Shown here: positions 858-57,455 of the stretch, in pieces
How the letters are laid out: every line of letters begins with the position of its first letter
Position numbering within the stretch: position 1 is the first letter of the stretch
Translations under genes and position numbers: made by a program
The notes under the pieces: generated by a model
What the model saw: only the letters and a program-made list of their open reading frames with translations
Databases searched by the model: none
Told to the model about the DNA's origin: nothing
IMG/VR virus record: IMGVR_UViG_3300011339_000564
Coordinates: 14,318 to 78,317 of that record
DNA: 64,000 nucleotides
From: a virus
Lineage: Duplodnaviria; Heunggongvirae; Uroviricota; Caudoviricetes
Direction: 5' to 3' (one strand)

Positions 858-1661
858 ATGGATCATTATGTAACTTTAGGGGTAAACAAAAATGCTACCC
901 CGGACGATATTAAAAAAGCATATCGCAAACTGGCAAGTAAACATCATCCCGATAAAGGGGGCGATACCGCAACGTTTCAACAAATTGAAGAAGCATATCG
1001 TATTCTCAGTGATCCACAACAACGTCAACAATATGACAATCCAATGCCACAAGGCTTTGGGCAGAATTTTAATTTTAACGGTGGACCTGATATCTTCCAA
1101 GACTTTATGAGTCAGGTGTTTAGGCAACAACATCAGCAACATCAACACCGCCAGAGACAAAAACCAGTATTTAGAACCACAGTAACTGTAACACTTGAAC
1201 AGTCATACAAAGGTGAAGAGCAAGTTATCAGACTACAAACACCTACACTTACACATGCGGCAAATATTCAAACTCCGAAAGGGGTTCATAATGGTGACCA
1301 AGTTAAATTTGATAATATCATACAAGAGGCAAGTCTTATTGTAGAGTTTAAAATTATACCACATTTAAAATATGATAGAAATGGAAATGACTTGTTATCA
1401 AATCACCCGATATCAATATTAGATTTAATTACAGGGACATCGTTTGAGTTTACTACTATTTCAGGTAAAACATTTGAAGTTACAGTTAAACCTAAAACGC
1501 AACCATTTATACAATTAAAAATTACAGGACAAGGTATGCCCATACATGGAACCAATCAGTTTGGCGACCAAATAATCTTGTTAAAACCCTATATACCTGA
1601 TATAATTGACGAATCAATTATTAACAGCATTCTACAATCTAAAAATAAGGAATCAATATGA
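858..1661 (+). CDS. J-domain co-chaperone (DnaJ/CbpA-like, no zinc finger)
   Basis: N-terminal J domain with the HPD motif (KHHPDKGG). The context YVTLGV...AYRKLA is typical of J domains. A Gly/Phe-rich linker ([15 protein letters not shown]) follows. Confidence 0.8.
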
Positions 1662-3919
1662 CAAATTCTCCGGAAATAGAAAACATTATCGAACAATCGA
1701 TTGAGTATGCCAAACAACGTAAACATCAATATGTTACAGTTGAACACTTACTTCTTGCATTAATTAATCATCCATCTTTTACTAAATGCGTAGTTGGCTT
1801 TGGCATAGATGTTGAGTCAATGTCACACGAAATCACTGGTTATTTAGATAGCTTACACGCTATTGTTTATACTGAAACTGAAGTAGTTCCACGCAAAACA
1901 AGTAGTTTAGAACGGGTTATGAATCGTTCTGTCACTCAGGTTCTATTCACCGGACGTAGACAAGTTACTACTATTGATTTGTATCTAAGTATTGCAAGTG
2001 AAGGTAACAGTCACGCACATTATTTCATGCTCAAATACGGTATGCAAAAGAATGAGTTTGTTGCGTACTGGCAAAAACACTATAAGAATGAAGGCGCCGG
2101 CAATCTTACTGAAAATCAAGCAGATGAAATTCTTGAAGAATATACTATTAACCTAAGTGAACTTGCTAGTCAAGGTAAACTTGAACCATTGATTGGTCGT
2201 GCAAAAGAACTTGATGATATTATCAATGTGCTTGCTAAACGATTTAAATCAAATGTATTGATGGTGGGTGATCCGGGTGTAGGTAAAACTGCTATTGCCG
2301 AAGGTCTTGCACAAATGATGCACGACAAACAAGTGCCTGAATTTTTAGAAGGTCATCAACTATATTCATTAGAAGTTGGTTCATTACTTGCCGGCAGCAA
2401 ATATCGCGGGGACTTTGAAGAAAAAGTCAAAGCCATTATCGATGCATTGAATACTAAAAAGAAAGCTATTTTATTCATTGACGAAGCACATACTATGCAA
2501 GGTGCAGGTTCAAGCTCCAATGGTAGTGTTGACTTTGCTAATATGATTAAACCAGCAATTACTAAAGGCACATTGAAAGTTATTGCTAGTACTACTTGGG
2601 AAGAATACTACGAAAGTTTTGAGAAGGATCGTGCATTAATGCGTAGATTCTATCGTGTCTCAATTGATGAACCAAGCAACGAATCTACTGTTCGAATTCT
2701 TTCTGGACTAAGCACACGATTGAATGACTTTCATAGTGTTGAAATTCAAGAAGATGCAATTAAAGCATCAGTTGAAATGTCAACACGATACATTCACGAC
2801 CGAAAAAATCCTGATAAAAGTATTGACTTATTGGATGCGGCTTGTGCTAAACAACGTGTTGCAGGTAATAAAGGTGCACATATTACTAAAGACTTAGTGT
2901 TTGACCAAGTAGAGAAGTTTACGGGAGTTCCTGCAGATAAGATGAAGGGTGATAATTTTGACCTTATCAATAACCTTGAGATTAATATCAAAGGTAAATT
3001 ATATGGTCAAGATGAAACCGTTCAGCAAGTGTTAGAACGTATCTATGTTAACTTTGCTGGTATCGGTAATGATACTAAACCAACAGGTAGTTTCTTGTTT
3101 TTAGGCCCAACAGGTACAGGTAAAACAGAATTGGCTAAGTTGTTAAGTAAGAACCTTGACATGCCATTGCTCAAATATGATATGAGTGAATACGGAGAAA
3201 AACATTCAGTATCTAGTTTGATCGGTCCGCCCCCTGGTTATGTTGGCTTCGGTGACAGTCAAGTCGGTGGTGGCCGTTTAATCAACGACTTAAGTAAGAA
3301 CCCACATGCTATCATGTTGTTTGATGAAGTTGAAAAAGCACACCCTGATATATTTAACATCTTCTTACAGATGTTAGACGAAGGTACTATTACAGGAAGT
3401 AATGGTAAGAAGGTTAACTGTAAGAATGCTATTATCATTATGACTAGTAACTTAGGTAGTGCCGATGGTGAGCGCAATAACATTGGTTTTGGATCACAAG
3501 ACAAGCAAGGAGAAGATGATAAAGCATTGAAAGAATTCTTTAAGCCAGAATTCAGAAATCGTGTTGATTTGATTTGCAAGTTTAACAAACTTGATAGCTT
3601 GGCTATTAAGAAAATTGTTATTAAGTTTACTGAAGATTTGAAAAAATCATTAATTGAAAAACACAATATCAATTTAGTATTGACAGAACCAGTAGTTGAG
3701 TATCTAGCTGAACAAGGGTATGACAAGAAAATGGGTGCTAGACCACTAGCACGTAAGATTGACGAATTGATTCGTGTACCACTGAGTAAAAAAGTATTGT
3801 TTGAACGCATTAAAAATGCTACTATTACTGCCAACATTGTTGGTGACACTATTGATTTTGCAGTGACACACAAATTAACAGCTAAGGTGAATGACGATGG
3901 CATTATTGAGGTCAGTTGA
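1658..3919 (+). CDS. clpA: ClpA-like ATP-dependent Clp protease ATP-binding subunit (two AAA+ modules)
   Basis: Two Walker A motifs (GDPGVGKT and GPTGTGKT). An IGF loop (NNIGFGS) sits just before [10 protein letters not shown], as in the ClpA ClpP-docking loop. At 753 aa there is no long ClpB middle domain. Confidence 0.85.
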
Positions 3920-4631
3920 AAATATACCCGGTGTTAATTTTTATGAACATCGGGATCAGCTTTATTATAACAAATATGAATATAGAGCTAGATTTTATCT
4001 AGTGGGAGTTCGGTATACATGGTATATCAAAGATAATATTCAGGAACTAGTTGACAAATTAAATGGCCCTGCAATAGGCTACAGCTACAGTTACATAAAT
4101 GGAGAAACCAATAGAGATGAGATTAAAGAAAATATTCCTAAATTAAAGAAATTTTTACACTGGCGTAACGAAATTAAAAAGAAGAAAAATTCTACTATAA
4201 GAGTTGAGCATAATACTGTTGCGGTGTTCAGTAATGATTTACAAGAATTACACGACATTACAAATATTATTCCTGATATTGAAATAGATATCACACAAGC
4301 ACAAACATCTAATTTTGTTGGGGTTAGGTATTTTGTGCGTAAACCAAAACATAGTTATAGAGTTTATTTAAAATCTAGGCGTATTGAGGGTTCATTTGCT
4401 AAGGATTTACATGAATTGTTTAAAAAGAACAAAAAGTTGTATCCATGCAATTCGCTTAAACATTGGGCTAAGGGTAGTGCAAGCAATACTAATATGTGGA
4501 GGTATCGTTTTAGTAGTGCTACTCACTTTATTGACTATGATGATGAGAGCACCTTAAGCTATCTAGCAATATTGCACGGAGATATGCTTGGAAAACGCTA
4601 TAAATTAGAAAAACGTCCTGATCCTATCTAA
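3891..4631 (+). CDS. hypothetical protein (246 aa)
   Basis: Long ORF that overlaps the end of the ClpA-like gene. Confidence 0.5.
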   Translation: MTMALLRSVENIPGVNFYEHRDQLYYNKYEYRARFYLVGVRYTWYIKDNIQELVDKLNGPAIGYSYSYINGETNRDEIKENIPKLKKFLHWRNEIKKKKNSTIRVEHNTVAVFSNDLQELHDITNIIPDIEIDITQAQTSNFVGVRYFVRKPKHSYRVYLKSRRIEGSFAKDLHELFKKNKKLYPCNSLKHWAKGSASNTNMWRYRFSSATHFIDYDDESTLSYLAILHGDMLGKRYKLEKRPDPI

Positions 4632-5203: not shown

Positions 5204-6487
5204 ATGAAACAAATTGTCATTATGCCGGGAGGCTTTCATCCATTTCATGCAGGGCACGCCGCACTATATCAAAGTGCAGTGAAAGCATTTCCGAGTGCAG
5301 AAGTATATGTTGCCGCTACCAATGACACAAAAACAAGACCTTTCCCCTTTAATATCAAAGAAAAACTAGCAAAACTTGCTGGCGTAGCTCCTGGACATTT
5401 TGTACAAGTTAAAAGTCCTTTTAAAGCAGAAGAAATCACAAGTCAATATAATCCAGAAGAAGATGTATTAATTTTTGTGCGTAGTGAAAAAGATAGAACA
5501 GAACAACCTAAACCAGGTGGCACAAAGAAAGATGGTACACCTGCTTACTTTCAACCATGGACCGGTAAGAATTTACAGCCATTCAGTAAACATGCTTACA
5601 TTGCTTACTTACCAACTGTAGAGTTTGGACCTGGAATTCAGAGTGCGACTGAGATTCGCAACATGTGGCCTAAACTAAACGATAAGCGCAAGACTGCATT
5701 GGTTATGAGTTTATATCCGATAACACAGACAAATCCTAAACTTGCCGCTAACGTTGTTAAGATGTTAGATATAGGCATGGGTGAACGACAAGGTGTGGCG
5801 GAGGATAAAGAATCCGATCCAGTCACAAGTGCTGTATTAAATTTCTATAAGCCAGTAATAAATGATATCCACAAAGAAAAACTACCAGACTATGTTGACC
5901 AAGCTCGTGGATTGTTACAGAAAACAAATGATCCTGATATTCGTAGTAAATTAGTTGATATCTTTAAAAAGGGTAAAGAAAATCCATATATTCAAGGTGG
6001 CATTGTTACTACCGTTGGTGCAGTATTAGCCGGTGGTATATTAACTACAGCACAGAAGATGGGACTAAGCCCTGCACAAACTAACTTAGCATTACAAGCA
6101 ATATTGAATACAGTTATTCCTACAGTTGTTTCACGTATCAATGGTAAAAACTGGAGTGATACAATTAAGTATACATTAGCAAGTGCAGGTATAGGTACAG
6201 GTATTGCCGGCGCAAGTTTAGTAGAAAACGATCCTTGGGGAGATCAAGGTAACTTTGCAGGTGATCGACACGTTGATATTGGTGGAATTTTTACTAGACC
6301 TAAATTAGGTGTAGGTGATATGGTTAAAGTAAATGCAGGTCATTTCAAAGGCATCGGAGAGATATCAGAAATTAAAGGTGACCGTGCAGAAGTTTGGATG
6401 GACAGCTATGCTAAATCCTTCATGTTTGATTTATCTGACCTAGTAAAGTATATACCCGAATCCATAGATTACTTAGAAGAAAAATAA
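5204..6487 (+). CDS. Two-part protein. An N-terminal HxGH nucleotidyltransferase domain (NMN/NaMN adenylyltransferase-like) is followed by a GVAE motif and a Gly-rich hydrophobic C-terminal half.
   Basis: IMPGGFHPFHAGH (the (T/H)xGH motif of the cytidylyl/adenylyltransferase superfamily). RQGVAEDKE at about aa 195. Hydrophobic segment GGIVTTVGAVLAGGILTTA. Confidence 0.6.
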   Translation: MKQIVIMPGGFHPFHAGHAALYQSAVKAFPSAEVYVAATNDTKTRPFPFNIKEKLAKLAGVAPGHFVQVKSPFKAEEITSQYNPEEDVLIFVRSEKDRTEQPKPGGTKKDGTPAYFQPWTGKNLQPFSKHAYIAYLPTVEFGPGIQSATEIRNMWPKLNDKRKTALVMSLYPITQTNPKLAANVVKMLDIGMGERQGVAEDKESDPVTSAVLNFYKPVINDIHKEKLPDYVDQARGLLQKTNDPDIRSKLVDIFKKGKENPYIQGGIVTTVGAVLAGGILTTAQKMGLSPAQTNLALQAILNTVIPTVVSRINGKNWSDTIKYTLASAGIGTGIAGASLVENDPWGDQGNFAGDRHVDIGGIFTRPKLGVGDMVKVNAGHFKGIGEISEIKGDRAEVWMDSYAKSFMFDLSDLVKYIPESIDYLEEK

Positions 6488-13804: not shown

Positions 13805-14245
13805 ATGTTATCAGATAATCTAAAAGTACTTTTAGCTAGTACACAAAGTTTTGCTATTAAAACACAAAACTTTCATTGGAATGTTGAGGGGAGTAATTTT
13901 CCACAGTATCATGCATTTTTTGATACGTTATACGGTGATGTAAGTGCTACTATCGATCCTATCGCTGAATATATCAGAATATTAGGTGCTTACACACCCG
14001 GCAGTTTACAACGTTATGCTGAACTAAGTATCATTCAAGACCAAATCAAAATCCCACGTGCTCAACTAATGTTTGCTGAATCACTACAAGATTGTGAAAA
14101 AATGAGTGAATTAGTCGTTGCTATGTTTGACGAAGCAACAAACGAACGTCAGCAAGGCATTGCTAATTACATGGCTGAACTACAAGACCTATACGGTAAG
14201 AAAGCATGGTTCATTCGTTCTACATTGAAAACAGAACGTGAGTAA
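13805..14245 (+). CDS. dps: Dps-like ferritin-fold DNA-protection protein
   Basis: LKVLLASTQSFAIKTQNFHWNVEGSNFPQYHAFFDTLY matches the Dps N-terminal signature (HWNVxGxxFxxLHxxF). About 146 aa, typical Dps length. Confidence 0.7.
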   Translation: MLSDNLKVLLASTQSFAIKTQNFHWNVEGSNFPQYHAFFDTLYGDVSATIDPIAEYIRILGAYTPGSLQRYAELSIIQDQIKIPRAQLMFAESLQDCEKMSELVVAMFDEATNERQQGIANYMAELQDLYGKKAWFIRSTLKTERE

Positions 14246-15515
14246 ATTAGAATTTACCCAGAAAGAATGGGAAAAGATAGAAAATAACGGGACTTATTGT
14301 CCCGGTTTATTTAACAGCAAATACATAGAAACTGACGGTGGACTGAGAGCATGTTGTGTTCAAGATTTAAAAGGTGAACATTATACAAATACAGAATCCT
14401 ATAACACCACTTCGTTAAAACAAGCCAGACAAAATTCATTATCAGGGATTAAAGATTCCAGTTGCGCTAGATGTTGGGAAAATGAATCATTAAACACCAG
14501 ATCATATAGACAAGGTCTAGTAGAGTCTGCTATTCACTGGAAAAGTAAAATCAAAGATAATATAAATGTTGACTATTCCATCACAGAACCCACCATAGAC
14601 TACTTAGACATTAGATTTGATAATATCTGTAATTTAAGATGTAGATATTGCAGTACTATTTTTAGTTCTAGTTGGAGACACGAAACTGAGTTACTAGAAA
14701 AAGAATTACCAATATTTAAATATATAAAAAGAAGATCAGTAGATACAAAAATATTGAATAGTGTAACCGATATTGACACGATATTAGCTGACCTTAGAAC
14801 AGTTAAAAAAATATTTTTTGCGGGTGGCGAGCCATTAGTAAACGATAAACATTATGAAGTGTTAGAATATCTAATAGATAATAATAGAACCAACATTGAA
14901 ATAACGTATAATACTAATTTTACAAACATTAAAAAAGTTATTCCTTATTGGAAAAAGTTTTCAAACATACACGTGGGTGCAAGTTTAGATGCAAATTATA
15001 AAAGAGGAGAATACATTCGTAAAAATCTCGTATGGGACCAGATTGTAGAAAATAGAAAATTAATGATTGCCGAAGTTCCTCATGTTCAATTTGAAATAAA
15101 TGCGTCAATGAGTATATTGAATGCGTATAATGTAGTAGATTTTCATAAAGAATGGATTAATGATAAATTAATTGGACCTTTTGATTTAACTGCATGGAAT
15201 TTTGTATCTAAACCTGAACATTATGATATTAGGAATTTACCTGACCATCATAAGATTAAATTAAAAGAAATATATCAAACTCATATTGATTGGTTAAACT
15301 CCCTCACATCAGGCAATGATATTAAGTTTAAAAGTAAAAATGATTCTAGTTTTGCTATTCAATCATATCAAGGTATAATTAATAGGTTAAATTTAAGTAG
15401 AAATTCATCTTTTGACAAATTTTGGGAATTTGACAAATGGTTAGATAATAATAGAGATGAAAACTTTTTTGATGTGTTTCCTGAGTATGAGGACTTTGCT
15501 AGATATTTTAGCTAA
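14238..15515 (+). CDS. radical SAM domain protein with an N-terminal Cys-rich extension
   Basis: CNLRCRYC is a CX3CX2C radical SAM cluster motif. Additional N-terminal cysteines (CPG...ACC...CARC). No C-terminal SPASM cysteines. GTG start assumed at 14238. Confidence 0.65.
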   Translation: MSKLEFTQKEWEKIENNGTYCPGLFNSKYIETDGGLRACCVQDLKGEHYTNTESYNTTSLKQARQNSLSGIKDSSCARCWENESLNTRSYRQGLVESAIHWKSKIKDNINVDYSITEPTIDYLDIRFDNICNLRCRYCSTIFSSSWRHETELLEKELPIFKYIKRRSVDTKILNSVTDIDTILADLRTVKKIFFAGGEPLVNDKHYEVLEYLIDNNRTNIEITYNTNFTNIKKVIPYWKKFSNIHVGASLDANYKRGEYIRKNLVWDQIVENRKLMIAEVPHVQFEINASMSILNAYNVVDFHKEWINDKLIGPFDLTAWNFVSKPEHYDIRNLPDHHKIKLKEIYQTHIDWLNSLTSGNDIKFKSKNDSSFAIQSYQGIINRLNLSRNSSFDKFWEFDKWLDNNRDENFFDVFPEYEDFARYFS

Positions 15516-21211: not shown

Positions 21212-21478
21212 ATGTCAGATTATAACAGAACCTTTAACGGTGAGGCAAAAATTAAACTAACTCAACTAGTAAATGAGGGCATGACAGTCCTACATGAGAT
21301 TGATACATTGAATGGTGGATTGAATGACACTATTAAAGCAGTCGCAGAAGAACTTGAAATCAAGGCTTCTACTTTGAAGAAAGCAATTAAAATTGCTCAC
21401 AAAGCAAGTCTCGGTCAGACTAACAAAGACCACGATGAACTCAACACTATCTTGGAAACTGTGGGCAAAACACTTTGA
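21212..21478 (+). CDS. hypothetical protein (88 aa)
   Basis: Strong SD (AAGGAG) and ORF. Confidence 0.5.
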   Translation: MSDYNRTFNGEAKIKLTQLVNEGMTVLHEIDTLNGGLNDTIKAVAEELEIKASTLKKAIKIAHKASLGQTNKDHDELNTILETVGKTL

Positions 21479-24183
21479 GTTACGTTGACGCTATTCATAG
21501 TAGGGATGAAGACCGTATCTACGTGGTAGAACGTGATAAGAATGGCGTACGCCAGTATAAAGAATATCCTACTAACTATGTGTTGTATTACCCTGACCAC
21601 AAGGGTAAACATCGTAGTATCTATGGCAATCCAGTTAGTCGTTTCAGTACACGCAAACGCACCGAGTTTGAAAAAGAAAAGCGCATCCACTCAGGTAAAA
21701 CATTGTTTGAATCTGATATCAATGTAGTCTTTCGTTGTCTAAGCGAAAACTATCTTAAAGTTGATGCACCTAACCTTCATACTTGCTTCTTTGACATTGA
21801 AGTGGACTTTGATCCAGTCAAAGGATTCAGTCCTACAAGTGATCCATTCAATCCCGTAACTGCTATCAGTTGTTACTTAGATTGGCTTGACCAATGTATT
21901 ACATTAGTTATTGCTCCTAAGCACATGACCACTGAGACTGCGTGGGAAATAGTTAGAGAGTTTCCTAATTGTTTTCTTTGCAATAACGAAAAGGAAATGT
22001 TTGATACATTCTTTGAATTAATTGAAGATGCTGATGTATTAACTGGCTGGAACTCAGAAGGATACGATATTCCATATATGGTCAATCGTGTTACTAGAGT
22101 AATGAGTAAAGATGATACACGCAAGTTTTGCTTGATGGGTCAGCTTCCTAAACCTCGTGAGTACGAACGATTTGGTAAGAAAGAAATGACTTACGATTTA
22201 GTCGGTAGAATTCACCTTGACTATTTACAACTTTACAAAAAGTATAACTATGAATCTCGACATTCATATAAGTTAGATGCTATCGGTGAGATGGAAGTTG
22301 GTGAAAACAAAACACAATATGAAGGTACTCTTGACCAGTTGTATAACAAAGACTTTAAAAAGTTCATTGAATACAATAGGCAAGATACAATGTTGTTGGT
22401 GAAGATTCACAACAAACTTAAGTTTTTAGAATTAGCTAATCAACTTGCACACGAAAATACAGTACTGCTTCCAACAGTAATGGGTTCAGTGGCAATGATT
22501 GAGATGGCAATTTTTAATGAGGCCCACGAACGTGGGTTAGTTGTCCCAGATAAAAAACGAAAGGTTGAAAATGCAGAAGAAATCCAGCAGGCAGCAGGTG
22601 CCTATGTTGCTACGCCCAAAAGAGGTATGCACGAATGGGTCGGCGCCGTCGACATTAACTCGCTCTATCCCTCGGTTATTCGTGCCGTCAACATGGGAGG
22701 AGAAACGATTGTCGCACAAGTCAGACAAACATTAACCGATCACTACATAAAAGAAAAGGGTCGTAATCTTGCTGAAGGAAAGAAATATTTCAAAGAAGGT
22801 GATGAAGATGTGACTGGTGCTATATTATGGGAGAACTTGTTCGGCTCATTAGAATATACTGCTATTATGAACCAAGAGCGTGGCACAATGCTTACTGTAG
22901 ATTACGAAGATGGTCGTAGTGAAGAAATGAGTGCGGCAGAAGTATGGAAGATGATTTTTGATAGTCACAAACCCTGGATGCTCTCTGCAAACGGAACAAT
23001 CTTCACATATGAAAAAGAAGGTGTTGTTCCTGGTCTACTCACACGCTGGTATACAGAACGTAAAGTAATTCAAAAACAAGCAAAAGAAGCATATGGCACA
23101 GATATGTATGATTATTACGACAAGCGACAACTAGTTCGTAAGATTTTATTGAACTCCGCGTATGGTGCATTGTTGAACGAACATTGTCGTTTCTATGATA
23201 AGCGCATTGGTCAAAGTGTTACATTGAGTGGGCGTCAAATCGTGCGACACATGATGAGTACAATCAATGAATCAGTAACTGGTGATTATAATCACGAAGG
23301 TCCTGCAATTGTTTATGGTGATACTGACTCATGTTATTTCACAGCATATCCTATTCTTAAACAGCAAATTGAGAGTGGCGAACTAACTTGGGATAAAGAA
23401 ACTTGTATCGGATTGTATGATGGCATCGCTGACCAAGCTAATGAATCGTTCCCTGCATTTATGGAACGTGCATTTCATGCACCTCGCAAGAATGGTGAGA
23501 TTATTAAAGCTGGTCGTGAACTGATCGGTGATCGTAGTATCTTTATCACTAAGAAACGTTATGCTATTAACATCTTTGACAAAGAGGGCAAGCGTAAAGA
23601 TAAAGACGGTGCTCTTGGTGATATCAAAGCTATGGGTCTTGACTTGAAACGTGCTGATACACCTAAGTATGTACAAGAATTCTTAATGGATGTGCTTGAG
23701 ATGGTTCTTCAACGAGGTAAAAATCGTGAGGATGTAATTGAACGTGTTAAGGAATTTAAACGTGTTATGGTAGCACAGGACAGCTGGACTAAAGGTTCTC
23801 CTAAATCAGTTAATAATTTAACTAAGCATACACAAATATTTGACAAAACAGGTAAGTGTGGTGTTGGTCACGCACGTGCCGCAATCAATTGGAACTATCT
23901 ACGCAGAATGAATGGGGACAACTACAGTCAACAAATTGTTGATGGTATGAAAATTATTGTATGTAAACTTAAATCTAACCCATTAGGCTTTAATAGTATT
24001 GCTTATCCGGTTGATGAATTACGATTGCCTACATGGTTCAAAGAATTACCATTTGACGATAGTGCAATGGAATCAACATTGGTTGATGAAAAGATTGACA
24101 ACTTGCTTGGTGTTCTTAATTGGGACATTAAGAGTAACATTGATGTTAAATCTACGTTTGATGACTTATTCAGTTTCGGTTAA
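21475..24183 (+). CDS. family B DNA polymerase with 3'-5' exonuclease domain
   Basis: Exo I FFDIEVD; Pol motif A DINSLYPSVI; motif B KILLNSAYGAL; motif C VYGDTDSCYF. Confidence 0.95.
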   Translation: MSYVDAIHSRDEDRIYVVERDKNGVRQYKEYPTNYVLYYPDHKGKHRSIYGNPVSRFSTRKRTEFEKEKRIHSGKTLFESDINVVFRCLSENYLKVDAPNLHTCFFDIEVDFDPVKGFSPTSDPFNPVTAISCYLDWLDQCITLVIAPKHMTTETAWEIVREFPNCFLCNNEKEMFDTFFELIEDADVLTGWNSEGYDIPYMVNRVTRVMSKDDTRKFCLMGQLPKPREYERFGKKEMTYDLVGRIHLDYLQLYKKYNYESRHSYKLDAIGEMEVGENKTQYEGTLDQLYNKDFKKFIEYNRQDTMLLVKIHNKLKFLELANQLAHENTVLLPTVMGSVAMIEMAIFNEAHERGLVVPDKKRKVENAEEIQQAAGAYVATPKRGMHEWVGAVDINSLYPSVIRAVNMGGETIVAQVRQTLTDHYIKEKGRNLAEGKKYFKEGDEDVTGAILWENLFGSLEYTAIMNQERGTMLTVDYEDGRSEEMSAAEVWKMIFDSHKPWMLSANGTIFTYEKEGVVPGLLTRWYTERKVIQKQAKEAYGTDMYDYYDKRQLVRKILLNSAYGALLNEHCRFYDKRIGQSVTLSGRQIVRHMMSTINESVTGDYNHEGPAIVYGDTDSCYFTAYPILKQQIESGELTWDKETCIGLYDGIADQANESFPAFMERAFHAPRKNGEIIKAGRELIGDRSIFITKKRYAINIFDKEGKRKDKDGALGDIKAMGLDLKRADTPKYVQEFLMDVLEMVLQRGKNREDVIERVKEFKRVMVAQDSWTKGSPKSVNNLTKHTQIFDKTGKCGVGHARAAINWNYLRRMNGDNYSQQIVDGMKIIVCKLKSNPLGFNSIAYPVDELRLPTWFKELPFDDSAMESTLVDEKIDNLLGVLNWDIKSNIDVKSTFDDLFSFG

Positions 24184-48440: not shown

Positions 48441-48859
48441 AATGGTTCTATGTTATTAAAACAAGTCACAATGACACACTAGGATTTGGAATTACTATTC
48501 ATTTGTCTAAACGATTAGTTGATGGTTATTGTAATCCTAGTGCGGCAAAACAACAATTTTCAAAATTGTATTATGGAGAAAATCTCCATATCAATCAATT
48601 AGAAAAATATATCAAACAGGTATATAGTAATAAACGATTAAACTTTACTAACACACGTACCCGTAAATTAGAATGGATAGATCCAAAATATGACATTTCA
48701 ATTGAGGATTTGATTGATACTGTTGAGGATCGTATTTTGGGCTACCCATTACCTATCAAACGTATCAGGGATAAATTCTTACCATACACCCTTGATAATC
48801 CGGATATCTTTAAAACAATCAATGAGAATCCTGATTTGTTTTTGGAACAACTCGGTTGA
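48437..48859 (+). CDS. hypothetical protein (140 aa)
   Basis: ORF. Confidence 0.5.
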   Translation: MKWFYVIKTSHNDTLGFGITIHLSKRLVDGYCNPSAAKQQFSKLYYGENLHINQLEKYIKQVYSNKRLNFTNTRTRKLEWIDPKYDISIEDLIDTVEDRILGYPLPIKRIRDKFLPYTLDNPDIFKTINENPDLFLEQLG

Positions 48860-48884
48860 CAACATCTAAATAGTAGTATATAAT
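48856..48884 (+). promoter_or_regulatory. sigma70 consensus promoter TTGACA-17-TATAAT. The ATG at 48891 is 6 nt downstream, so the transcript is probably leaderless.
   Basis: Exact hexamers; no SD. Confidence 0.55.
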
Positions 48885-48890
48885 AGACAC

Positions 48891-49889
48891 ATGAAATACG
48901 CACTCATTGACACAGCAAATACATTCTTCCGTGCCCGTCACATTGCATCACGTAATAGTGATACATGGGAAAAGATCGGCATGGCCCTACACTTGACATT
49001 GGCAAGTACTAATCAAATTGTTCGCAAGTTTGGTGTGGATCACGTTGTGTTTTGTTTAGAGGGTCGTAGCTGGCGCAAAAGTTTCTACGAGCCATACAAG
49101 AAAAATCGCATTGTTGATACACTATCACAAACAGAAGCCGAGATTGAAGAAAATAAAATGTTCTGGGAGACGTATGAAGTATTTACAAATTTTTTACGTG
49201 AGAAAACTAATGTTAGTGTCCTTCGTCATGCTGAGGCTGAGGCTGATGACTTAATTGCACGTTTCATTCACTTGCATCCCGATGATGAACATTTTATTAT
49301 CAGTAGCGATAGCGACTATGTGCAATTGATTACCGAAAATGTAAAACAATATAATGGGGTAGCTAATCAACTGATTACGTTAGATGGTTACTTTGATGAC
49401 AAGGGTAAGATTGTCAAAGATAAGAAAACTAAAGAACCCAAGCTACTAGAAGATCCACAATATTTGCTATTTAAAAAATGTATGCGGGGTGATGGTACTG
49501 ACAATGTGTTTAGTGCTTATCCTGGTGTGCGTGAGAAAGGTAGCAAGAATAAAGTTGGCTTGATGGAAGCATATGCTGATAGAGAAAAACAGGGCTACCA
49601 GTGGAACAATCTACTACTTCAACGCTGGCTAGACCATAATGGAGTAGAACATCGTGTACGTGAGGATTATGAACGTAATCGTATACTAATTGATTTGACT
49701 GCACAACCTCAGGATATCAAAGACAAGGTTGATGCTAGTATCATTGAGGGTGTTCGTACAACTACTACCCCTCAAGTTGGTATTCACTTTATGCGATTCT
49801 GTGGCAAATATGAGTTGACTAAGATTAGTGAACAAGCAGAAACATATGCGAAATGGTTGAATAGTCCTTACATGGGAAGTTTAGTATGA
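48891..49889 (+). CDS. 5'-3' exonuclease / flap endonuclease (RNase H / FEN family)
   Basis: EADDLIARFIH and IISSDSDYVQL match the conserved acidic blocks of T4 RNase H / T5 D15-type exonucleases. Confidence 0.75.
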   Translation: MKYALIDTANTFFRARHIASRNSDTWEKIGMALHLTLASTNQIVRKFGVDHVVFCLEGRSWRKSFYEPYKKNRIVDTLSQTEAEIEENKMFWETYEVFTNFLREKTNVSVLRHAEAEADDLIARFIHLHPDDEHFIISSDSDYVQLITENVKQYNGVANQLITLDGYFDDKGKIVKDKKTKEPKLLEDPQYLLFKKCMRGDGTDNVFSAYPGVREKGSKNKVGLMEAYADREKQGYQWNNLLLQRWLDHNGVEHRVREDYERNRILIDLTAQPQDIKDKVDASIIEGVRTTTTPQVGIHFMRFCGKYELTKISEQAETYAKWLNSPYMGSLV

Positions 49890-55498: not shown

Positions 55499-56122
55499 AT
55501 GAAATATCATATTTTAGGAAGACCGGGCGGAAGCAGACCACTAGTATCAACTATTTTTAATATGATGGGATACAATTCGTATTACGGCTCTTTAGATAAA
55601 CCCAATGACAATGATACAGCAATATTAATAACATATCAATACGATATGTTCGCATGGGTAATGACCTCTAGATACGTTGAAGATATATTATACAATTATA
55701 ATTTAGGTAATAAAGAAAACTTTAATCATTGGCTTACTCACTATGTGGGTCCAGGCACACCGTCAACCCCAGATGATATCAGCATGAGTGATTGGGCGGC
55801 GCACGTAGTGAACAGTTATAAACACATAGGAATGTTTGCTCCTTTAAACGGTATCTATGAAGATTTAGAATTATATTGTAAAGATTCAAAATGTATGCGA
55901 CACGAATTGCCGTTAGAATTAATTGTAGATAGTCCAAATCAGGCTATAATTAGGATAGAAGAAATTACAGAAAAAGTTATGGATCAACAAATTAAGAATT
56001 TTTTCTTAAAAGAAGTTGAGAAACAAAAAATATTACTTTCTCCATGGATGGATGATTACTATAAAGCAAAAGAAAAATCCACAGACAGTTATCTGTGGCT
56101 TAAAAAGCAATCCTCAATTTGA
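55499..56122 (+). CDS. hypothetical protein (207 aa from the ATG after the hairpin)
   Basis: The track ORF 55454 would run through the hairpin, so the internal ATG 55499 is preferred. Confidence 0.45.
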   Translation: MKYHILGRPGGSRPLVSTIFNMMGYNSYYGSLDKPNDNDTAILITYQYDMFAWVMTSRYVEDILYNYNLGNKENFNHWLTHYVGPGTPSTPDDISMSDWAAHVVNSYKHIGMFAPLNGIYEDLELYCKDSKCMRHELPLELIVDSPNQAIIRIEEITEKVMDQQIKNFFLKEVEKQKILLSPWMDDYYKAKEKSTDSYLWLKKQSSI

Positions 56123-56153
56123 CATAAATTCCAAATAGTGTTACAATAAGGGT

Positions 56154-57455
56154 ATGAAAAAATTTATACTCATACTATCTATTGTTCTATCCGGTTGTGG
56201 GGGCGGTGGTGGCACCAGTACTGGCGATAGTTCGCAGGCAGTATCAGTAAAATCAACGTGTACCCTTGCTGTAAATTCAAATACAGTTCCACAATCATAT
56301 TATGGCACTAATTCAATACCCACACCATTATCAAAATTTGATAATACTATTCTAAGAGGTATTGGTCTTAAAGATTATCATCCTAGATTTAATCTGGCAA
56401 ATACAAATTGCACTCAAGATGAACATTCCAGATTACTATATCAAAAAACACTAGACAGATTAAAACTATTAAACGTAGATTATGTTGAAGTATATCAATA
56501 TGGCCCGGTAGTTGATTTTAATGCTACTACTTGGGTAGTAGATAAATCTACATGGCAAATACCAGAAAGTGAATTGATCTGGTTTATTAAAGAGGCTAAT
56601 AGTAGAAACATTAAAGTAAATATTATTTGGCAATTATGGCCAACTGATAGTAAAGGTAATACTATAAATTCAAGTTATGATATGTCAGAAGCGGAAATGT
56701 TAAAAGTATTGCGGGGATGGCATAATATTATTGTAGATTTAGCTAAGTTTGGTGGTAGTAATGGTTTGAATATATTAACCGTACATTGGAATGCATTTCA
56801 TTTTCCAGTAACTAACAAATATAAAGAATCTGCCACCTTAGAATTTTTATCAATCATTAATGATGTGCGACAACATTTTAATGGTAAATTATTTATGGGA
56901 GCATCGCCTGTATTTTTTGATAAGAGAATTGTTGAAAAGGTCGATGGTATTATTATTCCATTAACTCCTAGTAATTGGTCTAGAAATGATGATATTAATA
57001 TATCTGTCAGTTTGTTAAAAAGCCGATATTTAGATAATATATTAGGAAAAGCATTAGAACTTTCTATGGCTACTGGATTAGATTTAAAAAGTATTCCGGT
57101 TATCTGGGATTTTAATATTCAGAGCAGAGATAAAGCATTGAGTGAAGGTTGGGTAGAAGATGGATTTTGTATTAAAGAAGGTGGCGATGGTGCCCCTGTA
57201 AGTTGGGGTAATCCTGAATGTGCCAAACAAATGAATTATATAACCGATTTTAGTATTCAAGCATTAGCTATTGAAGGTGCATTTCAGGCTATTAAAGAAC
57301 AAACATTAATTAAAACATATGGTATTAACTTTAGTACTAGTTATTGGCATACTGATACGTTAGTACCCGGGCAAGAAGGCTTTCCCAACTTGTCGCAATC
57401 TATTCGAGGAAAACCTGCTGAGAATGTAGTCAAACATTGGTTCTCCAAAAATTGA
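56154..57455 (+). CDS. lipoprotein (433 aa), function unknown
   Basis: Signal peptide plus the lipobox LSGC, followed by a poly-Gly linker (CGGGGGTSTGDSS). Confidence 0.6.
   Translation: MKKFILILSIVLSGCGGGGGTSTGDSSQAVSVKSTCTLAVNSNTVPQSYYGTNSIPTPLSKFDNTILRGIGLKDYHPRFNLANTNCTQDEHSRLLYQKTLDRLKLLNVDYVEVYQYGPVVDFNATTWVVDKSTWQIPESELIWFIKEANSRNIKVNIIWQLWPTDSKGNTINSSYDMSEAEMLKVLRGWHNIIVDLAKFGGSNGLNILTVHWNAFHFPVTNKYKESATLEFLSIINDVRQHFNGKLFMGASPVFFDKRIVEKVDGIIIPLTPSNWSRNDDINISVSLLKSRYLDNILGKALELSMATGLDLKSIPVIWDFNIQSRDKALSEGWVEDGFCIKEGGDGAPVSWGNPECAKQMNYITDFSIQALAIEGAFQAIKEQTLIKTYGINFSTSYWHTDTLVPGQEGFPNLSQSIRGKPAENVVKHWFSKN

Follow-up and report, generated by a model that had tools for sequence, protein, structure and literature searches.

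Why a tailed phage should carry the gene of a J-domain co-chaperone directly in front of that of a ClpA-type unfoldase, and which ClpP peptidase such an unfoldase would serve, are the questions raised by a locus near the start of a 64,000-nt stretch of viral DNA (Caudoviricetes; IMG/VR record IMGVR_UViG_3300011339_000564, positions 14,318 to 78,317; the whole of this stretch is hereafter called the window). Both open reading frames (ORFs) were present on the + strand at the positions listed below, and they are the first two members of a gene string that is conserved in the clade to which the window belongs. The explanation that we consider probable is that they are parts of a phage-borne ClpA-ClpP protease accompanied by a class-B Hsp40 that would work through the DnaK of the host, both belonging to a proteostasis toolkit that several lineages of jumbo phages with kinship to the Rak2-like phages would share. 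The features on which the analysis is centered, in window positions, are the following:

858 to 1661, + strand: class-B J-domain protein (Hsp40) of 267 amino acids, assigned from Pfam, structure match and conservation
945 to 953, + strand: HPD motif of the J-protein (residues 30-32)
1658 to 3919, + strand: predicted ClpA-type Hsp100 unfoldase of 753 amino acids, assigned from Pfam, NCBIfam and structure alignment
2267 to 2290, + strand: Walker A motif GDPGVGKT of the first ATPase domain (D1)
2399 to 2407, + strand: D1 pore loop KYR
3104 to 3127, + strand: Walker A motif GPTGTGKT of the second ATPase domain (D2)
3236 to 3247, + strand: D2 pore loop GYVG
3482 to 3490, + strand: IGF tripeptide of the unfoldase (residues 609-611), the extended motif IGFG spanning 3482-3493

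Relatives were taken from IMG/VR, in which 333 contigs encode relatives of the ClpA-like protein; the locus counts out of 80 given below refer to the best 80 of these 333. In the J-protein, the Pfam DnaJ domain was matched by residues 2-60 (E = 4e-23) and DnaJ_C by residues 106-247 (E = 4e-23), the latter over the full length of the model, while the HPD motif was invariant in all 83 sequences compared. The J-domain is followed by a G/F- and Q-rich linker, with G and F making up 34% of residues 62-90. The protein contains no cysteine at all and hence no zinc finger, and its best match among solved structures was the zinc-finger-less DnaJ2 of Thermus thermophilus (residues 2-248, E = 2e-24). The combination of an HPD J-domain, a G/F linker and DnaJ_C with the lack of a zinc finger and the best match to DnaJ2 identifies ORF 858-1661, as far as its sequence tells, as a full class-B Hsp40. 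It resembles T. thermophilus DnaJ2, E. coli CbpA and yeast Sis1 in joining an HPD J-domain and a G/F-rich linker to two C-terminal beta-sandwich client-binding domains without a zinc finger, and it differs from these class-B references in its shorter C-terminus and in falling far under the NCBIfam equivalog cut-offs, with 148.9 bits against the 377.2 required for DnaJ_bact and 77.4 against 403 for CbpA.

The gene of the ClpA-like protein overlaps the J-protein gene by the tetranucleotide ATGA (1658-1661), its start lying within the stop codon of the latter, and the sequence AAGGA stands 8 nt 5' of that start. The predicted product is 753 amino acids long, compared with 758 for E. coli ClpA, and was matched by the Pfam families Clp_N (the N-terminal domain, at residues 16-55, E = 1.6e-9), AAA, AAA_lid_9, AAA_2 and ClpB_D2-small. 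The NCBIfam ClpA model (TIGR02639) aligned in one stretch from residue 5 to 722 with 783.8 bits; likewise, a phmmer comparison with E. coli ClpA (1KSF) gave one stretch from 6 to 719 at approximately 40% identity, with no insertion at the site of the middle domain (M-domain). In contrast, the ClpB, ClpV, ClpK and ClpG models aligned in two separate stretches, and the alignments with solved ClpB, ClpC and Hsp104 split near residue 401-404, which is the site of their middle domain. As the ClpA matches are unbroken and those of ClpB, ClpC and Hsp104 are split, the protein lacks an M-domain.

Conservation of the motifs was assessed in 82 complete homologues, namely 79 from IMG/VR (one of the 80 loci being incomplete), the window itself, and the cultured phages Atu_ph07 and Phosso. 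The Walker A and B motifs, the pore loops KYR and GYVG, the Arg fingers and the sensors were kept in 80-82 of them. The phage protein thus shares with E. coli ClpA, the unfoldase of the ClpAP(S) protease (1KSF, 6W1Z, 7UIV), the domain order N, D1, D2 and D2-small as well as the Walker, pore-loop, sensor and Arg-finger motifs; the two differ in that the phage gene is preceded by a J-protein gene and its E. coli counterpart by clpS. The ClpB-DnaK-DnaJ bi-chaperone disaggregase likewise has an Hsp100 and an Hsp40 encoded together, but ClpB requires its M-domain for DnaK activation and has no ClpP loop, whereas the phage protein has the loop and no M-domain. A sequence-only reading made earlier had described a DnaJ/CbpA-like J-protein with an HPD motif, translationally coupled to a ClpA homologue of full architecture with an N-domain and both Walker A motifs, and had asked for an alignment check on the ClpB middle domain; the results above agree with the description on each of these points and place the protein among those without that domain.

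The same reading had matched an IGF tripeptide to the IGL loop with which ClpA docks onto ClpP, and this placement was confirmed. Residues I609-G610-F611 aligned by phmmer with I617-G618-L619 of E. coli ClpA, the alignment being free of gaps between the sensor-1 strand of D2 and the end of the helix after it, and they fit the docking pattern [I/L/V]-G-[F/L]. The solved structures of ClpAP (6W1Z-6W24 and 7UIV) have this IGL tripeptide of E. coli docked into ClpP. The I, the G, the F and the G that follows were invariant in 82 of the 82 homologues, while positions 602, 604, 607 and 613-617 of the same region varied freely. The ClpA of the Pseudomonas phage PA5oct also carries IGFG, and the loop is conserved across relatives down to 39% identity. 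At the level of sequence, this pattern shows the ATPase motifs, the pore loops and the IGF loop to be under strong purifying selection, and from it we infer that the loop docks onto a ClpP.

Synteny analysis revealed that the J-protein gene lies directly upstream of the ClpA-like gene in all 80 IMG/VR loci, at distances from -8 to +28 nt, with the ATGA overlap present in 18. Some of these contigs are 300-365 kb long. The ClpA-like protein is the most constrained of the three neighbouring products, being 73-88% identical to that of the window, as compared to 42-68% for the J-protein and 27-71% for the product of the downstream ORF. The pair also occurs in cultured phages, with the same order and strand as in the window in Atu_ph07, where gp293/gp292 are annotated as a DnaJ-ClpA pair, and in PA5oct, where EST35_0297 is followed by EST35_0298 at 9 nt; in Phosso (CDS 193/195) the order and strand are as in the window and a peptide deformylase gene intervenes. 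The ClpA proteins of the cultured phages are 39-40% identical to that of the window and their J-proteins merely 25-27%; moreover, the J-protein of PA5oct has no G/F region, unlike that of the window. The ATGA overlap and a conserved 246-aa ORF downstream are specific to the freshwater clade when compared with Atu_ph07, PA5oct and Phosso. In both PA5oct (locus 190683-195842) and the clade of the window, a PhoH gene of opposite orientation precedes the pair at a distance of a few genes, and this shared position suggests that the synteny was inherited.

In the annotated genome of Atu_ph07, ClpA (gp292) and DnaJ (gp293) are accompanied by ClpB, ClpX, ClpP (gp676) and ClpS (gp708), and ClpA was reported to be conserved among the Rak2-like phages (Attai 2018, PMC6102473). 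The occurrence of J-domain co-chaperones, ClpA, ClpX, ClpP and ClpS in jumbo phages has also been described (Iyer 2021). The pairing had been regarded as unusual in the sequence-only reading, a view that does not hold given its presence in every locus compared, its annotation in Atu_ph07, Phosso and PA5oct and its discussion in the former of these two papers. The pairing is thus already known and annotated, and the locus adds no new kind of system; what the present analysis contributes is that the docking loop is strictly conserved, that a ClpP is co-resident and that the J-ClpA synteny is broad, together with the promoter arrangement described below. The Hsp40/Hsp100 part of the toolkit is most likely common to the jumbo myophages PA5oct, Atu_ph07 and Phosso and the freshwater clade, with a version lacking the J-protein in RaK2 and GAP32.

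The identity of the peptidase that would complete the protease was approached through these relatives. Within the 64-kb window, ClpP, ClpS, DnaK, GrpE and GroES were not found by tblastn, nor ClpP and ClpS by profile searches. Ten IMG/VR contigs, on the other hand, hold both the ClpA-like gene of the clade and a ClpP gene, and among 11 pairings the two genes share a strand in 8, with ClpP 58-76 kb downstream as counted from the start of ClpA, while in two pairings ClpP is 33 kb upstream. The absence of ClpP from the window is therefore expected, as the window spans only -1.6 to +62 kb around ClpA. A comparison of the 3' end of the window with the 3-kb flanks of the ClpP loci gave synteny limited to two weak matches.

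The ClpP proteins concerned are canonical. In those of the clade, the Ser-His-Asp triad was kept in 83 of 83 sequences; among the residues that we take to form the ClpP docking pocket (Y60, Y62, F82, I90, M92 and L114), all were kept except Y60, which is mostly Ser. The ClpPs of Atu_ph07, of Phosso and of the clade are approximately 64% identical to E. coli ClpP and that of PA5oct 46%, while the ClpPs of GAP32 and of jumbo phages of E. coli and Serratia are more divergent. The GAP32 protein is 38% identical to the ClpP of the clade. With IGFG kept in the J-adjacent ClpAs, and IGV or LGM found in those of phages that have no neighbouring J-protein gene, these differences in ClpP may reflect a co-evolution of the docking interface. 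PA5oct has a separate prohead protease (gp152), so head maturation is not simply the task of its ClpP. ClpS is encoded by Atu_ph07, Phosso and PA5oct, and the PA5oct gene adjoins that of a small "heat shock protein". In addition, DnaK was not found in the genomes of Atu_ph07, Phosso or PA5oct, and since these complete relatives encode no Hsp70, the DnaK of the host is the partner that we propose for the J-protein.

Under this explanation, the unfoldase would form a hexamer whose IGF loops enter hydrophobic pockets on a tetradecamer of ClpP, and would then unfold proteins and thread them into ClpP for degradation. The likeliest ClpP partner would be the canonical enzyme of the phage itself, encoded outside the window, although the host ClpP may serve too. 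The J-protein would bind clients through its C-terminal domains and activate the host DnaK through its HPD motif. Such a system may be directed at host proteins, which it would remodel or degrade, or it may help the great mass of phage proteins to stay folded. A comparable route is described for the plastid of Arabidopsis (PMC4729485), in which J20 acts via Hsp70 on ClpC1/ClpP and misfolded clients are delivered to a ClpP-docking Hsp100. The likeness between this plastid route and the phage module is functional only, the homology being no closer than at the family level.

The same loop could instead serve to dock the phage unfoldase onto the ClpP of the host and so redirect host proteolysis without any phage ClpP, as the sequence-only reading had suggested. 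The IGF loop is generic and fits a ClpX-type motif, ClpP docking pockets are widely conserved, no ClpP was found in the window, and it was proposed that some jumbo phages use the host ClpAP through a phage ClpS (Iyer 2021). However, a canonical ClpP is encoded by each of the complete relatives that were checked, and likewise on ten contigs from the clade of the window, which makes a phage-encoded ClpAP the simpler reading, and the window stops short of the position at which clpP is expected. The position of the loop stands as it was proposed, while the host enzyme as its exclusive partner appears unlikely.

Less likely still is that the unfoldase acts independently of ClpP, as a chaperone or translocase for virion assembly or replication, alone or together with the J-protein and DnaK. 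The RaK2-type homologues, whose ClpA genes do not adjoin a J-protein gene, have degenerate loops that would suit such a role, with IGV in RaK2 and in Vibrio phage 2.275.O and LGM in GAP32. E. coli ClpA alone is said to have chaperone activity, as Wickner reportedly found in 1994, and E. coli ClpA remodels RepA of P1. For phages, ClpA and ClpX were suggested to be translocases or assembly aids (Iyer 2021), and the removal of aggregates with DnaJ and ClpB was proposed for Atu_ph07 (Attai 2018, PMC6102473). If ClpP were not docked, the invariance of IGFG in an otherwise variable loop would nevertheless be difficult to account for; ClpP is encoded in the same genomes, and the ClpB-type M-domain needed for coupling to DnaK is absent. 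For this last reason, a disaggregase in the sense of ClpB, which the sequence-only reading had offered as its alternative, is disfavoured.

A more elaborate form of the protease was also considered, in which proteins of the host or of the phage would be chosen by the J-protein and handed over to the phage ClpAP, via a hijacked DnaK or by contact with the ClpA N-domain, thereby replacing ClpS as the adaptor. Such a dedicated viral degradation pathway draws on the persistence of the J-ClpA adjacency in lineages among which ClpA identity is as low as about 39%, together with the strict IGFG and the presence of ClpP; we rate it as improbable, on a par with the chaperone role. Finally, the locus might have been a bacterial fragment or a mis-binned contig bearing cellular clpA and dnaJ genes, and several deposited "phage" records with ClpA, ClpP, DnaK and DnaJ are evidently bacterial. 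The window, by contrast, contains a T4-type DNA polymerase, a GP88-family gene and many families known only from PHROG, its ClpA-like protein has 333 IMG/VR relatives, and three cultured phages (PA5oct, Atu_ph07 and Phosso) share its synteny. Bacterial clpA, moreover, normally follows clpS and not a J-protein gene. Cellular contamination is effectively refuted by the phage genes, the relatives and the synteny, and its chance is negligible. The records with near-bacterial ClpA, ClpP, ClpS, DnaK and DnaJ include CAKLQH02/CAKLQF02 (Acinetobacter phage MD-2021a), OR84xxxx (Listeria phage LM 4-11-1 and 4-14-1) and others; they look like bacterial contamination, and they inflate the number of "phages with ClpA or ClpP" in the phage collection.

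The phage-borne ClpA-ClpP protease with its Hsp40 remains the explanation that we favor, and the following points weigh against it. The scores of the unfoldase are low with respect to the ClpA equivalog cut-offs, reaching 783.8 against 993.15 for TIGR02639 and 671.5 against 1350 for NF008263, and the protein is accordingly ClpA-like by architecture rather than a certified orthologue. Its AlphaFold model was poor (pLDDT 57.6, pTM 0.41) and was built on a shallow alignment of sequences at least 84% identical; in this low-confidence model, the IGF tripeptide lies in a coil (597-618) between a strand (592-596) and a helix (619-627), and Foldseek with the same model matched ClpC and ClpA chains at E of about 1e-43 with a global TM of only about 0.2. 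RaK2, GAP32 and the Vibrio jumbo phage have a ClpA homologue without an adjoining J-protein, which indicates that the J-protein is not required for ClpA function in general. A ClpP and a ClpS in the present genome would be expected from the relatives, the window itself having neither, and a scan for ClpS found none on a ClpA-bearing contig among the 80 listed of 325 relatives. Lastly, the paper library that was searched yielded no experimental work on a ClpA or ClpP of phage origin.

The type of genome to which the window belongs was deduced in part from its DNA polymerase, a T4-type family-B enzyme encoded at 21475-24183, whose nearest relatives were those of Sinorhizobium phage Phosso (49%), Agrobacterium phage Atu_ph07 (46%) and the RaK2-like Klebsiella jumbo phages (44%). 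When the first 6 kb were compared at near-identity with the DNA of deposited phages, the only match was a trivial one of 68 bp. A 99%-identical copy of the ClpA-like protein was present in a large protein collection, on a contig of 64,323 bp, where its automatic JGI name is ClpA. The window belongs to a very abundant environmental (freshwater) clade of jumbo phages. A recent paper describes freshwater "moraphages" in which ClpA is near-core and DnaJ and DnaK occur, a lineage of 200-307 kb that was placed outside the T4 group (2025; PMC12619734). Among the relatives, the record IMGVR_UViG_3300027749_002876 (524,565 bp) holds two differing ClpA-like copies, 79% and 80% identical to that of the window, and also two ClpP copies (100% and 93% to each other); two related genomes were probably concatenated or fused into a chimera in this record, which would then not be a single 524-kb genome. 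Elsewhere in the window, a radical-SAM protein gene (PF04055, E = 7e-11) was found at 14238-15515 on the + strand, and an ORF of 427 amino acids at 5204-6487, also on the + strand, has GGFHPFHAGH at its start, which is typical of HxGH nucleotidyltransferases, and no Pfam match.

The surroundings of the J-ClpA pair provided further features of interest for its expression and extent:

445 to 473, + strand: putative sigma-70-type promoter consensus, TTGACA-17-TATAAT, with a 12/12 match, ending 7 nt before the ATG at 481
481 to 849, + strand: ORF of 122 amino acids between the promoter and the J-protein gene, without a Pfam match
3891 to 4631, + strand: conserved ORF of 246 amino acids, overlapping the 3' end of the ClpA-like gene by 29 nt

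In approximately 60 of the 80 relatives, the sigma-70 consensus ends 5-10 nt, and mostly 6 nt, 5' of the ATG of the J-protein. Such a spacing would put the start of transcription on or beside the start codon and implies a leaderless or near-leaderless mRNA. The same arrangement was found elsewhere in the window, with the consensus at 48856-48884 followed by an ATG at 48891 and that at 56119-56147 followed by an ATG at 56154. In total, the window has seven sites at which a consensus promoter (12/12 or 11/12) abuts the ATG of a sizeable ORF, ending 6-7 nt before it, as compared to 1.1 ± 1.1 in shuffled sequences. A consensus sigma-70 promoter of this kind suggests that the module would be transcribed, probably early, by the RNA polymerase of the host. 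Neither Clp nor DnaJ is mentioned in the main text of the omics paper on PA5oct, and the same applies to the MIJ3 and RaK2 papers.

The 122-aa ORF gave no tblastn match in 82 related loci and therefore probably stands outside the conserved module. Relatives with a 99%-identical ClpA have a different gene of 211 amino acids at this place, with a weak GTA_holin_3TM match, and the ORF of the window has the look of an insertion or replacement peculiar to the strain. The J-protein gene starts 8 nt after the stop codon of this ORF and has no Shine-Dalgarno sequence. The 246-aa ORF, on the other side, comes third in the gene string that the clade conserves: most of the 80 loci have it, with an overlap of 29-32 nt with the ClpA-like gene in 58 of them, and it has at least 522 environmental homologues, none of which is named. 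It belongs to no Pfam or PHROG family, and its AlphaFold model (pLDDT 65.5) had no Foldseek match in the PDB at E ≤ 0.001. This ORF may or may not be a functional part of the chaperone module.

Taken together, jumbo phages carry part of the bacterial machinery for protein quality control. If the phage ClpA-ClpP is active as an early protease, it could possibly be a device for host takeover or against host defence. The J-protein would reveal how phages tap the Hsp70 of their host. Because the J-ClpA pair, the IGF loop and ClpP are conserved across an abundant clade, PA5oct and Atu_ph07 would be sensible models for experiments.

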